Virus record (IMG/VR): IMGVR_UViG_2606217104_000012
DNA from: a virus
Lineage: Duplodnaviria; Heunggongvirae; Uroviricota; Caudoviricetes
Length of the DNA stretch: 26,763 nucleotides
Reading direction: 5' to 3' (one strand)
In this document: positions 21,851 through 25,962 of the stretch, piece after piece
How the letters are laid out: each line of letters begins with the position of its first letter
Numbering within the stretch: the first letter of the stretch is position 1
Position numbers and translations under genes: made by a program
Notes under the pieces: model-generated
What the model was told of the DNA's origin: nothing
What the model saw: the letters and a program-made list of their open reading frames with translations, nothing else
Database searches by the model: none

Positions 21851-22201
21851 TCACTTTAACCGTTCACGGGCCGTCTTCGCCTTATGACACGGCCAGCACA
21901 GACTCTGCAGATTACTGTCGGCATCAGTGCCGCCATGTGCTTTAGGGATGATGTGGTCAACGGTTTTCGCCTCACGCACCACACCGGCACGCAGACATAA
22001 CTGACACAGGCCTTTGTCACGCTTCAGTACACGTTCACGGATAGCATCCCATTTCGAACCGTAGCCGCGCTGATGACGGGACTGGCCTGGCTTGTATTGC
22101 TTCCAGCCTTCGCTTTTGTGGCTTTCGCAGTAGCCTGACGGGTCTGTGGTGGTATGGCGGCAGCCACGAACACGGCAGGCTTTTGGGATTCGTGATGGCA
22201 T
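21851..22201 (-). CDS. HNH endonuclease (packaging-associated)
   Basis: About 116 aa from ATG at 22201 (GGAG RBS); Cys-rich N-terminus (CRVRGCRHTT...YCESH) and HNH core (DHIIPKAHGGTDADSNLQSLCWPCH). Confidence 0.85.
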   Translation of the reverse strand: MPSRIPKACRVRGCRHTTTDPSGYCESHKSEGWKQYKPGQSRHQRGYGSKWDAIRERVLKRDKGLCQLCLRAGVVREAKTVDHIIPKAHGGTDADSNLQSLCWPCHKAKTARERLK

Positions 22202-22321
22202 ATGTACTCCAATGAAGAAGCCACCGACATAGCCTCCTCCATTCATCGTGAAACTATTTTCATCTACCCAGTAATGAATACTTTGTAGAGTTGTGATCAA
22301 TACAACTCACTAATGGAGAGG

Positions 22322-22343
22322 CTTGTCCAACACGTTGGACAAG
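22322..22343. promoter_or_regulatory. Near-perfect palindrome cttgtccaac-ac-gttggacaag (10-bp arms) followed by a T-rich tract
   Basis: Directly visible inverted repeat in the intergenic region between the lysis and packaging genes. Confidence 0.5.
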
Positions 22344-22493
22344 TTTCCTGTTTGATTTACTGGACACTACAGAAGGACAGAATGCCTTCATCACTCGAAT
22401 AACACCAATTAAGGAGGTTAAACATGTTTCGTTCCAAAAGTCAGTTGACTGTAATTATTATTACGTCACCTTATGCCAAAGAGCTTTTCCGCT

Positions 22494-22769
22494 TCACTTT
22501 GAGCCTGATTCACTTCTACCTGACCGGCTCGCCTCTATCTTTCTAATCCCCGCTTTATCCAAATTGCACTGCCATAATGCCGACAATAAACTGACATTTA
22601 AATCTAGGCTACCTCCATAAGTCAGAGGATTGGGGATAACTGGCTGTGGAGTTTCAGCGAGCAGGTTCGCCGGTAACGGCATCGTTGGAACCTGCACGTA
22701 AACTGTCCGCGTACTTCCGCAACCGGTCAGCAGCGGCAGCAGGCACAGCACGTGAAGCGCAATCATCAT
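22494..22769 (-). CDS. Rz1: o-spanin Rz1 (outer-membrane lipoprotein), overlapping the 3' part of Rz in another frame
   Basis: Internal start MMIALHVLCLLPLLTGC gives a signal peptide plus lipobox LTGC; proline-rich mature region (PTMPLPANLLAETPQPVIPNPL); begins inside Rz and runs 160 nt past its stop. Confidence 0.65.
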   Translation of the reverse strand: MMIALHVLCLLPLLTGCGSTRTVYVQVPTMPLPANLLAETPQPVIPNPLTYGGSLDLNVSLLSALWQCNLDKAGIRKIEASRSGRSESGSK

Positions 22770-23509: not shown

Positions 23510-23836
23510 TTACTCCTTCGTGCTACCAAATTTGTTACCGATTACTCGCATTGCAGCCCCACGAATAGCATCGACACCGATCAGCCCAACACCGCCACCA
23601 ATGGCAACAGAAAGCGATTTAGGCCATCCGACATACTCAAGAGCGGATGCAAAGGTCAGCGTCAAAGCGCCACAGAGCAAAATCTCGAGCGTTTTTCGCT
23701 TCCAGCCACCACCACCGCCAAAATAGGCAATGCGCAAGCCAGCCATAACGATCGACATAATCACTGCGCCCAGCGGTGTGTCTCCACGCCACCAGCTCTG
23801 GACCAACTCCAGCCAGGTATTTGGGTTATGAGGCAT
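23510..23836 (-). CDS. Holin (three predicted TM segments)
   Basis: 108 aa, three hydrophobic segments, charged C-terminus; immediately upstream of the endolysin. Confidence 0.7.
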   Translation of the reverse strand: MPHNPNTWLELVQSWWRGDTPLGAVIMSIVMAGLRIAYFGGGGGWKRKTLEILLCGALTLTFASALEYVGWPKSLSVAIGGGVGLIGVDAIRGAAMRVIGNKFGSTKE

Positions 23837-23970
23837 TTGTAGTTATCTCTCACCTCGCAATACAGGAGGTGCAAATTGAGGGAACATCATGTACCGCAAA
23901 TCAGAAGCGGAAACGTCAAAGAAGCCGAGCCAATGGATAACTGCGGGATAGACCAGGCCCAACGAATCCC

Positions 23971-24009
23971 TAGGCCCAAAAACGACAAAACCCGCTCAAT
24001 GGCGGGTTT
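23971..24009 (-). terminator. Intrinsic terminator on the minus strand upstream of the holin gene (tR'-like late-leader terminator)
   Basis: Minus strand reads AAACCCGCCATTGAGCGGGTTTTGTCGTTTTTGGG, a hairpin followed by a U-tract. Confidence 0.6.
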
Positions 24010-24166
24010 AAGCTGTGTGGCGAAGTAACCACTCTTAACACGATATAATACTTTTTGCGTACGCGTTAACTTTTTCTGTAGTATTTAGTGTAAGATTCTT
24101 CACAAGATAGATACTTTGGAGTACATGATGTAAAGTGCTGTATGCATAAACAGTACAAAGGATATC

Positions 24167-24688
24167 ATGATGAACAAATTAGCACGCTTATTATTAACAG
24201 CAAGCTCAATTGCACCTGTTTGCGCAACTCTATTTTTTATTGGATATGTAAAAGATACGGTTTGGCTGATGCAATATAGCTTATGCGTTGGCATAGCAAG
24301 TTGGTTATTAGCAATAGGCCTGATTCAATATGCTGAGAAACAACTTGAACCTCTGACAAAAAATATTAGTTCAGTTTCTCCCGCTAACAAAGAAGTAACT
24401 AATTATTTCTTAAGCTATTTATTCCCTCTCCTAGGAACAGACTCTATTGCTGAAAATAAAGCATATGCGTTATTCTTTTATTTGTCATTGTTATTTTACA
24501 TCAGCTTTTCCGAGAACTATAACTTTAACCCAGTATTGTCACTTATCGGTTATAAATTTTACGAAGCTGAAGATGACACCGGCGTAGGTTTTGTATTGAT
24601 TTCTAAATCAGTCATTACTGATATTAAAGATATCAAATTTACAGTTATTCAATTAACAGACTACACATTTCTACATGTTAAAGGATAA
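24167..24688 (+). CDS. Predicted multi-pass membrane protein (173 aa), first gene of an AT-rich two-gene cassette; candidate defence/exclusion component (KwaA-like architecture, unverified)
   Basis: ATG with AAAGGA RBS; hydrophobic segments LARLLLTASSIAPVCATLFFIGYV, SLCVGIASWLLAIGLIQY, AYALFFYLSLLFYISF; opposite strand to surrounding late genes; strongly AT-rich. Confidence 0.6.
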   Translation: MMNKLARLLLTASSIAPVCATLFFIGYVKDTVWLMQYSLCVGIASWLLAIGLIQYAEKQLEPLTKNISSVSPANKEVTNYFLSYLFPLLGTDSIAENKAYALFFYLSLLFYISFSENYNFNPVLSLIGYKFYEAEDDTGVGFVLISKSVITDIKDIKFTVIQLTDYTFLHVKG

Positions 24689-24693
24689 TAACC

Positions 24694-25578
24694 ATGGCAC
24701 TTTTTGCAGTAATAGATAATACAATTGCAACGAGAATTGTTAGAGTCGAACTTGATGCAACAGCAAGTACTTCTGTTACGGCCATTTTCCAACAACAGCG
24801 TCAATATTTTGAAAGTCATCATAACAATATGATACCATTCTATGCCGGTTATACACCAAAACATAGTGAGTGTTTTGAAATACAAAACTTTACTGATTCT
24901 GCACGCCTGATTGACGCAGTCAATAGGCCTACCGCCGTGCCTGTCTGGGATCCCAGCCAAATTGATATTGGTTATATTAAAGCATTATTTGTTGGTGTTG
25001 ACGCGCCAGCAAACCCCAATATTATTGCGCTACAAACCTTCAACAAAAAACAAATCTTAGATACCTCAAAATCATTCTTTGGAAAGCTTTTTGCAAGCAA
25101 AACTACCTTTAGTAAAGCTAATAGCATCGGTTTTAATGTTGATGATAAACTAGTTGCAATAATTATCAATGATACAATACGATTTAAGAGTTTCTTTAAT
25201 CTAAGAAGCATTTTTGACATGTCGTCCTATTTTTCTGCTGCTACTGACCAAGAACTTAATGCATTTAGTCAACTTAGTGTATTTTCTACTCCCCAAGGTT
25301 TTGATCTAAAATCCGTTGCAGATACAGTGATAAGAAATAAAGTAACACTAATAAATCAGACTGGGATGCTAACACCCCAAAATATGTCAAAGTTTAAATC
25401 CGAAGCTGCTAAAGTCAATTTCCCCTTACAAACCATAATAGTTGGCGGTGTTGAGAAAATTGTCATGCCTTCATCAAAAAAAGAAATAAAAGCCCTTCTT
25501 GACTTTCTTGAGGAAGACATTTGGATTTCAGGGATAAGTGGAAGACGCTTTAAATCGAATTCAAAGCGCCCAATATAA
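24694..25578 (+). CDS. Soluble protein of unknown function (294 aa), second gene of the cassette (KwaB-like architecture, unverified)
   Basis: Starts 5 nt after the membrane-protein stop with AAAGGA RBS; no Walker, HNH or other catalytic motif found by eye; AT-rich. Confidence 0.6.
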   Translation: MALFAVIDNTIATRIVRVELDATASTSVTAIFQQQRQYFESHHNNMIPFYAGYTPKHSECFEIQNFTDSARLIDAVNRPTAVPVWDPSQIDIGYIKALFVGVDAPANPNIIALQTFNKKQILDTSKSFFGKLFASKTTFSKANSIGFNVDDKLVAIIINDTIRFKSFFNLRSIFDMSSYFSAATDQELNAFSQLSVFSTPQGFDLKSVADTVIRNKVTLINQTGMLTPQNMSKFKSEAAKVNFPLQTIIVGGVEKIVMPSSKKEIKALLDFLEEDIWISGISGRRFKSNSKRPI

Positions 25579-25599
25579 CTAGAAGACAGTTAAGAATAG

Positions 25600-25962
25600 T
25601 TAACAGGCAAGAGTGCAAACAATGCCTTCAATGAAACCAAGCGATGTTTGCAACTCTTTCCTGATAGTCCCATCCGAACACTTTCTCTTCTTAGCAATGG
25701 CTCGCAATGAAATCCCTACCACAAAATGGGCTATAACTAATTCATACTCTTCTGGTTTGTACTTTCTTAATCTAGCTACGCACCCATCGATCATGAGCCC
25801 CTCATCATCATCACACTGAATCCGGGACTTTTTGCCATGAGGTAAAAGCCCCTTGAAGCCAGCGGCTACCGGTTGCCAGTCCACTCCGCTATTGTCTGAA
25901 GCAGCCCAAGCTCCCCAACGATCCATCACTTCATACATATCACGCATCAACTTTCTCCACAA
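25600..25962 (-). CDS. Late-gene antitermination protein Q (QuuD/Q82 type)
   Basis: 120 aa; matches my recollection of DLP12 QuuD (ERWGAWAA...AAGFKGL...CDDD...C.ARL). Confidence 0.8.
   Translation of the reverse strand: MWRKLMRDMYEVMDRWGAWAASDNSGVDWQPVAAGFKGLLPHGKKSRIQCDDDEGLMIDGCVARLRKYKPEEYELVIAHFVVGISLRAIAKKRKCSDGTIRKELQTSLGFIEGIVCTLAC

Follow-up and report, generated by a model that had tools for sequence, protein, structure and literature searches.

We analysed a stretch of 26,763 nucleotides from the IMG/VR virus record IMGVR_UViG_2606217104_000012 (henceforth the window), in which an AT-rich cassette of two plus-strand genes lies between the gene for antiterminator Q and the holin gene. 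We conclude with high confidence that this cassette is a kwaA-kwaB operon, i.e., a Kiwa anti-phage defence system, that it belongs to a short-form clade of Kiwa, and that it is carried as cargo of a prophage. Both proteins are related to the Kiwa proteins by homology and by fold, their genes are organised as an operon, and operons of this clade are recurrently carried by prophages. The two genes are as follows:

kwaA, 24170..24688, plus strand: 172 amino acids (173 if the ATG at 24167 is used), the inner-membrane component of Kiwa.
kwaB, 24694..25578, plus strand: 294 amino acids, soluble, with an N-terminal alpha/beta domain and a C-terminal DUF4868 (KwaB) domain.

The genes are spaced by 5 nucleotides, with the membrane-protein gene first and the DUF4868-protein gene second, and this order was identical in all homologous loci that we inspected. 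Both RefSeq and the consensus N-terminus of the homologues (MNKLARLL) favour the second ATG, at 24170, as the start of kwaA, meaning that the ATG at 24167 chosen in a preliminary description of the window was one codon early at most. The cassette stands out by its GC content (32.6% in kwaA and 35.8% in kwaB vs. 52.3% in the rest of the window; 0.31-0.38 in sliding windows within the cassette vs. 0.50-0.58 outside). Hydropathy analysis found four hydrophobic segments in KwaA, whose charge distribution fits a topology with four transmembrane (TM) helices, and none in KwaB (Kyte-Doolittle maximum 1.2 over 17 residues). The preliminary description, which had been made from the sequence alone, had spoken of two coupled, AT-rich plus-strand genes between Q and the holin, encoding a multi-pass membrane protein followed by a soluble one; the open reading frames (ORFs), base composition and flanking gene families agree with the first part of this account, and the segment counts together with the four TM helices of the KwaA model (see below) agree with the second.

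Searches with family models assigned both proteins to Kiwa. The PADLOC models KwaA PDLC00216 and KwaB PDLC00225 matched the first and the second protein, respectively, over their full length (E 1.9e-83 and E 2.3e-150), and the Pfam family PF16162 (KwaB, formerly DUF4868) matched residues 108-281 of KwaB with 31.7 bits, above its gathering cut-off of 26.3, as the preliminary description had suggested checking. The family PF28043 (KwaA in newer Pfam) was found on a cluster representative 99% identical to the window's KwaA (P0090), while the RefSeq names for identical genes are 'KwaA family protein' and 'Kiwa anti-phage protein KwaB-like domain-containing protein'. When PDB was searched with a profile built on the KwaA clade, 'Kiwa protein KwaA' was retrieved (9mrg_A, E 6.9e-6).

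The same assignment came from structural models, which we built with AlphaFold2 (AF2) on the clade alignments and which reached a predicted local distance difference test (pLDDT) value of 78 for each protein. In the KwaA model, helices span residues 2-27, 31-58, 75-88 and 91-113, a beta segment spans residues 61-71, and strands occupy residues 129-169; the predicted layout thus consists of four TM helices, a beta segment in a cytoplasmic loop and four C-terminal strands. The published KwaA structure has four TM helices and a beta-barrel formed from intracellular loop 1 (ICL1) and the C-terminus (PMC11785009), a description that the predicted topology of our model matches. Foldseek comparison of the KwaA model with PDB gave significant hits only to 9mrg, 9mrx_A and 9mrr (probability 1.0, template modelling score 0.62-0.70, 17-18% identity), and that of the KwaB model only to 9mrx_D, 9nyu and 9mtn (probability 1.0, template modelling score 0.51-0.61), in alignments of 296-317 columns with 12-13% identity; for both models the hits spanned the full length. 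PADLOC, Pfam, the profile search against PDB, fold and RefSeq names therefore agree on the likeness to KwaA/KwaB that the preliminary description had drawn, and the structural comparison that it had proposed returned Kiwa structures only for both models. Its remark that the system was 'possibly a new variant' does not stand, given that RefSeq already names the identical proteins and PADLOC-type tools, which hold a sub-model for the clade, label them as Kiwa; the clade is nevertheless very distant from the Kiwa systems studied so far.

The extent of this distance is best seen against the reference Kiwa of E. coli O55:H7 RM12579, for which the structures 9mrg, 9mrr, 9mrx, 9mtn and 9nyu are available (Zhang, Todeschini et al. 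2025, PMC11785009). By sequence comparison, the window's clade lies far from CHARACTERISED Kiwa: BLASTP aligned the window's KwaA to RM12579 KwaA with 26% identity over 90 amino acids (E 9e-6). Several results weigh against a close equivalence of the two systems. BLASTP found no similarity between the window's KwaB and RM12579 KwaB (E above 1), hhalign gave a probability of 0.4 for the KwaB clade alignment against RM12579-type KwaB, and KwaA scored 46 bits against the NCBIfam KwaA equivalog model NF041622, whose cut-off is 100, which makes the window's KwaA a family member but no equivalog of the KwaA that has been characterised. Neither a direct phmmer search of both proteins against PDB sequences nor a search of the KwaB clade profile against PDB returned anything relevant. 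The KwaB residues that contact DNA (R142, R167, K187, R233, N134 and D169) and the KwaA-KwaB interface residues were confirmed in the RM12579 sequences; since KwaB could be aligned by neither BLASTP nor hhalign, these functional residues are not mappable onto the window's clade, and mechanistic equivalence to characterised Kiwa would have the modelled fold as its sole ground. All KwaB chains in PDB have the RM12579-type sequence, so that the short-form clade is without a solved structure, and we found no experimental test of a short-form Kiwa.

The short-form clade (172 + 294 amino acids) is widespread in Enterobacterales. A profile search of genome contigs with the KwaB alignment yielded 5 loci, and further loci (numbered with the prefix L where needed below) came from look-ups of exact proteins. 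Homologues with 46-99% identity were found in Klebsiella, Salmonella, Enterobacter, Serratia, Proteus, Photorhabdus and Gilliamella, alike in operon structure and in carrying a LexA box (described below). Their settings vary: the interval between Q and the lysis genes also holds a clade Kiwa in Klebsiella and Proteus prophages; in a Photorhabdus prophage the operon follows Rz; in Gilliamella prophages (L027/L028, 4154-6396) kwaAB and its LexA box come directly after the CI gene, which is the position of rexAB in lambda; and in Salmonella and Citrobacter the operon resides in genomic islands, with the Citrobacter copy adjoining an integrase gene. In one Citrobacter freundii genome (L022, 3450-5001), a DDE transposase gene of an insertion sequence (IS) element lies between the LexA box with its promoter and kwaA, an insertion that would uncouple the operon from its predicted operator.

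While the identity of the genes was already on record, the control region upstream of them yielded what we consider the new point, namely a candidate operator for the SOS repressor LexA on a Kiwa promoter. In an alignment of the sequences upstream of kwaA from E. coli, Klebsiella and Salmonella, almost the sole conserved element was a CTGT-N8-ACAG palindrome right after a -10-like hexamer. We compared this palindrome with the LexA consensus (CTGT-N8-ACAG, TACTG(TA)5CAGTA) and scored it with a weight matrix derived from 19 E. coli SOS boxes. The elements of the region, of which the promoter is putative and was read from the sequence, are:

LexA (SOS) box TGCTGTATGCATAAACAGTA, 24136..24155, plus strand: 22.6 bits, starting 34 nucleotides upstream of the ATG at 24170.
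Putative kwaAB promoter, 24108..24136, plus strand: -35-like TAGATA at 24108-24113, a 17-nucleotide spacer and -10-like TAAAGT at 24131-24136.
Shine-Dalgarno sequence AAAGGA for kwaA, 24157..24162, plus strand: 4 nucleotides 5' of the ATG at 24167 and 7 nucleotides 5' of the ATG at 24170, read from the sequence.

TGCTGTATGCATAAACAGTA was the only site of at least 10 bits in the 26.7-kb window (the training boxes themselves score 13-27), and the pattern CTGTAT-N6-ACAG matched the window once, with 0.01 matches expected by chance. The last base of the TAAAGT hexamer, which is of the TAAGT type, is the first base of the box, and a -10-like hexamer abutting the box recurs at homologous loci (TAAAGT, TATAGT, TAAGAT, TACTAT). 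The box itself was present in all 11 gammaproteobacterial lineages of the clade that we examined (E. coli, Klebsiella, Salmonella, Enterobacter, Leclercia, Erwinia, Serratia, Citrobacter, Photorhabdus, Proteus and Gilliamella), scoring 21-27 bits, with KwaA identity within this set going down to 46%. Where the start of kwaA was called correctly, the box began 31-42 nucleotides before it; the calls in Enterobacter and Erwinia are off, and there the box lies about 30-35 nucleotides before the MNK-type start. A distant homologue from Thermoanaerobaculia was without a LexA box. Since a conserved operator abuts the -10 hexamer, we predict that host LexA represses kwaAB and that the SOS response lifts this repression, meaning that expression would not be simply constitutive. 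The preliminary description had argued that the cassette needs its own promoter and is probably expressed in the lysogen; the first part is consistent with the dedicated promoter region, and the second would have to be qualified by the predicted repression, which the SOS response would lift.

Boxes of the same kind were also found at canonical Kiwa loci, i.e., those of E. coli O55:H7 RM12579, Enterobacter, Pantoea and Vibrio splendidus, with 21.7-25.1 bits. They lie 86-92 nucleotides upstream of kwaA (86-129 over all the sites listed here) and overlap a promoter-like region:

RM12579 LexA box, L035 3062-3081: 23.9 bits, upstream of the validated Kiwa.
Other boxes at canonical Kiwa loci: L029 3911; L032/L033 3913; L034 3915; L039 2872.

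Across 358 kb of fetched loci, nearly all matches of at least 17 bits were Kiwa boxes, and the rest lay near a dinI-like gene or phage methylase genes.

Several points speak against LexA control, and most of them support an alternative in which the system is Kiwa but its LexA-like palindrome does not function as an operator, so that expression would be constitutive in the lysogen. Kiwa constructs with their native promoters protect cells in which no DNA damage has been induced (PMC11785009), meaning that repression, if real, must be leaky or relieved by infection. The predicted -35 hexamer of kwaAB is weak, and the promoter as a whole agrees with the consensus at 8 of 12 positions, below the threshold of 9 at which our scan reports a promoter. 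The Kiwa of Vibrio parahaemolyticus (L036-L038) has no LexA box, and the set of SOS boxes behind our weight matrix was not a curated one. On the other side, the box has stayed next to the -10 hexamer in 11 lineages although other upstream DNA has diverged, it recurs in a second Kiwa clade, and its scores equal those of genuine SOS boxes at a chance expectation of about 0.01 per window. We therefore regard constitutive expression as unlikely, while giving it a real share of the probability. For the wider proposal that Kiwa operons of Enterobacterales and of at least some Vibrio, including that of RM12579, belong to the LexA/SOS regulon, and that the interval between Q and the conserved block (see below) in phages with a QuuD-type Q is a defence hotspot, the balance tips only slightly in favour. 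Among the papers searched, none linked Kiwa or DUF4868 to LexA or SOS.

Two further observations concern LexA in related phages. Prophages of the TUM14664 type (see below) encode, in the nin region upstream of Q and outside the window, a protein of 108-130 amino acids that consists of a LexA DNA-binding domain only (L001 24078-24404; L011 9018-9410), which might bind LexA boxes of the kwaA type without being cleavable. Separately, in Stx2a_1447, phiP27, mEp460, cdtI and 1720a-02, the phage gene for a DNA methylase that lies downstream of the conserved block carries at its 5' end a LexA-box-like site of 21.5-23.8 bits, through which SOS might act on the late region upstream of stx:

LexA-like sites at methylase genes: L003 2010; L004 2501; L005 2496; L007 2496; L008 2000.

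The element that carries the cassette is a prophage of E. coli that resembles SfII and phiP27. Strain TUM14664 has, at thrW-proA, a prophage that shares 97-98% identity with the window and that combines a Mu-like baseplate and tail, an HK97-type head and a P27-type terminase with a lambdoid regulatory region. Around the cassette we distinguished the following features:

Antiterminator Q gene, 25600..25962, minus strand: Pfam PF06530 (Phage_antitermQ), E 1.5e-45; the RefSeq start is 25947.
Cargo segment, 24099..25599, no strand: about 1.5 kb between the conserved block and the Q stop codon, with a drop in GC content.
Conserved Q-proximal block, 23978..24075, minus strand: presumed module of late promoter, Q-utilisation site and tR' terminator.
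Lambda-family holin gene, 23510..23836, minus strand: Pfam PF05106 (Phage_holin_3_1), E 5.7e-25; PHROG 126, holin/anti-holin; first lysis gene.

Q is convergent with kwaB, with 21 bp between the two stop codons and no terminator predicted in 25579-25599; beyond the holin gene lie genes for endolysin, Rz/Rz1, an HNH protein and terminase. On the left, the window ceases to resemble SfII and Stx2a_1447 after TGTAAGATT at 24090-24098, and on the right, other phages are again similar from the Q stop codon at 25600 onwards. The cassette was thus probably inserted between Q and the late module, upstream of the late promoter and divergent from it, and convergent with Q.

In lambdoid phages, the promoter pR', the Q-utilisation site and the terminator tR' are located just after Q. 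The conserved block of cargo-free phages (1720a-02, PhiR5_1 and PhiR49_2) starts about 35 nucleotides after the Q stop codon, which is the place of pR'/tR', and we therefore read it as the presumed late promoter/terminator module. A 40-nucleotide core of the block (GGCGGGTTTAAGCTGTGTGGCGAAGTAACCACTCTTAACA; also given as GGCGAAGTAACCACTCTTAACA) is invariant in nine phages, and an intrinsic terminator is predicted in the block on the minus strand, with a hairpin at 24009-23988 followed by a T-run. This unit of hairpin and terminator is compatible with a leader RNA that is short (about 70 nucleotides) and terminated, like the lambda 6S RNA or StxS. Some results weigh against reading the block as the late module: a scan for the sigma-70 consensus found no promoter in 23830-24200 or in the equivalent block of a cargo-free phage, late-promoter candidates picked by eye within the block were unconvincing, and a text search of the literature on the invariant block found only a primer for deletion of Q in an Stx2dact phage and no promoter mapping. 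The fold of the minus-strand RNA of the block is unremarkable (z = -1.7). Rfam searches of the intergenic region gave sub-threshold matches only, to a Leu leader and to the Pseudomonas small RNA (sRNA) P9, both driven by the terminator hairpin; the P9 match, at 23987-24055 on the minus strand, reached 19 bits at a gathering score of 43. Stx phages have their methylase gene, tRNA genes and stx downstream of the conserved block. The preliminary description had likened the location of the cassette to that of stx and had held it to be antisense to late transcription, which is probably wrong in detail, as the conserved terminator block separates the cassette from the holin gene and stx is found beyond that block.

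The interval between Q and the block is occupied by different genes in related phages. In SfII it holds PDC-M53A/B (orf50/49) and in phiP27 it holds L22, which matches PD-Lambda-1. The other occupants are uncharacterised: orf24/23 of Stx2a_1447 (343 + 179 amino acids), orf49/48 of SfIV (356 + 108 amino acids, together with IS1), orf54/53 of cdtI (313 amino acids, with DUF6731, + 147 amino acids) and an ORF of 308 amino acids in mEp460. These uncharacterised proteins fall in PHROGs of unknown function, and we propose them as candidate new defence systems, some of which adjoin stx.

Carriage next to Q and the lysis genes could also be read differently, namely that the pair, despite its Kiwa fold, serves the induced cycle of the prophage itself, e.g., by holding or shielding DNA or by modulating the membrane, instead of acting in defence. 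LexA control would indeed switch kwaAB on at prophage induction, and kwaAB adjoins Q and the lysis genes in three different prophage types. By contrast, the operon and its LexA box are also present in Salmonella islands that are not phages and beside the integrase gene in Citrobacter, the same slot in related phages holds validated or candidate defence systems (PD-Lambda-1, PDC-M53), and all five Kiwa systems tested so far, from three phylogenetic clusters, protected against phages (PMC11785009). We hence consider a role in the prophage's own cycle improbable and retain Kiwa defence as the probable function of the cassette.

Foreign, AT-rich DNA, together with the Citrobacter copy in which an IS element lies between LexA box and kwaA, might also point to a decaying defence remnant that no longer functions. 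Yet both ORFs are unbroken and cover the family models in full, the cassette is conserved with at least 99% DNA identity in 33 of 5426 complete E. coli genomes (a relative with about 67% identity occurs in a further 38), and the ratio of nonsynonymous to synonymous substitution rates (dN/dS) relative to the Klebsiella copy is about 0.04 for kwaA and kwaB alike, an approximate value since dS is saturated. On the basis of this ratio and of the conservation in 33 genomes, both ORFs are real genes and not chance occurrences; both are under purifying selection, which makes decay very improbable. Least probable of all is that the genes have nothing to do with Kiwa and form a pair of the RexAB kind or of another kind that acts by abortive infection or superinfection exclusion. 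The likeness to RexAB was raised, more loosely, in the preliminary description, and such a pair is suggested by the membrane-protein-plus-partner architecture, the carriage by prophages and the rexAB position of the Gilliamella operon after CI; significant fold matches, however, were to KwaA and KwaB only. We rejected this candidate after finding no Rex family among the matches to Pfam, PHROGs, PADLOC and NCBIfam.

How the window's Kiwa may work can be outlined from the characterised systems, in which KwaA tetramers and KwaB dimers form a membrane supercomplex that gathers at phage attachment sites and senses membrane disturbance, while KwaB binds DNA via DUF4868, stalls replication and blocks late transcription without abortive infection; the phage protein Gam inhibits KwaB, and Kiwa also lowers conjugation (PMC11785009). 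From the shared fold and operon structure we infer the same mode of action here. By analogy with the O55:H7/ECOR systems, inner-membrane tetramers of KwaA would join dimers of KwaB in a supercomplex that senses how a phage, on attaching or injecting, or else conjugation disturbs the membrane, and KwaB would then bind the incoming DNA through DUF4868, so that replication and late transcription are blocked and the cell is not killed. The cis-elements suggest that host LexA would hold kwaAB low in the resting lysogen and that DNA damage, which also induces prophages, would release its expression. Judging from comparative anatomy, late transcription would not cross the cassette, and a Q transcript that reads through would enter kwaB in the antisense direction.

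As a gene call, the cassette is routine, as the exact genes already bear the Kiwa label and Kiwa has previously been reported on prophages and satellites. Its value lies elsewhere. Given that KwaB of this clade is recognisable only by profile and fold, its divergence makes it well suited to finding out which parts of the mechanism hold for Kiwa in general. A LexA operator in two deep Kiwa clades, including the reference system, offers a testable link between SOS and membrane-sensing defence, and such a link could alter the reading of Kiwa assays with respect to expression level, induction by infection or antibiotics, and interactions between phages and quinolones. If true, it would mean that a membrane-anchored defence is kept low by LexA and raised by the same DNA damage that induces the neighbouring prophages. 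The Q-proximal slot, in turn, is a cheap source of candidate defence genes from lambdoid and Stx prophages.

Some observations concern other parts of the window. A second AT-rich moron (2456-3505, plus strand, GC content 0.26-0.33) lies by the tail-fibre genes and encodes an Acyl_transf_3/O-antigen O-acetyltransferase (Pfam E 2e-30; PHROG 3333), which probably acts in serotype conversion and receptor masking; it is preceded by an ORF of 190 amino acids (869-1441, plus strand; PHROG 4350, of unknown function). The 64 bp at 433-496 match, with 95% identity, the end of the related prophage at tRNA-Thr (thrW) (L001 33578-33641) and probably represent an attachment-site (att) repeat at the prophage end; no tRNA gene was called in the window. 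A second variable spot is located between the HNH endonuclease and Rz/Rz1 genes (22201-22695 vs. L001 17892-18596), where the TUM14664 prophage encodes a GrlR-family regulator and the window has a different stretch, 494 bp of low GC content with no long ORF. The tape-measure region (9785-12148) also differs between the window and the TUM14664 prophage.

Among known systems, the window's locus is a member of the short-form clade (PDLC00216 + PDLC00225; PHROGs 7312 + 15620), from which it shows no material difference. With the Kiwa of RM12579, reportedly to be attributed to Doron 2018, it shares the kwaA-kwaB operon, a KwaA with four TM helices and a cytoplasmic, beta-rich C-terminus, a KwaB with an N-terminal alpha/beta (Rossmann-like) domain and DUF4868, an AT-rich locus (about 30% GC in RM12579) and a LexA box upstream of kwaA. 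The two differ in protein length (KwaA 195 amino acids in RM12579 vs. 172 here; KwaB 315 vs. 294), in their PADLOC sub-models (PDLC00219/PDLC00233 vs. PDLC00216/PDLC00225), in the position of the box (about 90 nucleotides upstream, over the -35 and spacer, in RM12579, whereas the window's box begins 34 nucleotides before the ATG and abuts the -10) and in their setting, which is a restriction/defence island in RM12579 and a prophage here. Lambda RexAB and the stx morons are likewise AT-rich accessory genes of prophages near the Q-lysis or immunity region with their own regulation. The window's proteins, however, have no homology to RexA or RexB, and stx is Q-dependent and lies downstream of the conserved block (presumed pR'-tR'), whereas the window's cassette lies upstream of it and in the opposite direction. 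PD-Lambda-1 (L22 of phiP27) and PDC-M53A/B of SfII are inserted at the same point as the cassette, after the Q stop codon and before the conserved block; PDC-M53 is also like the cassette in forming a compact unit against Q, and the PD-Lambda-1 relative in its defence function. Both differ from the cassette in consisting of unrelated proteins and in having no LexA box, and L22 of phiP27 additionally in lying on the same strand as Q.

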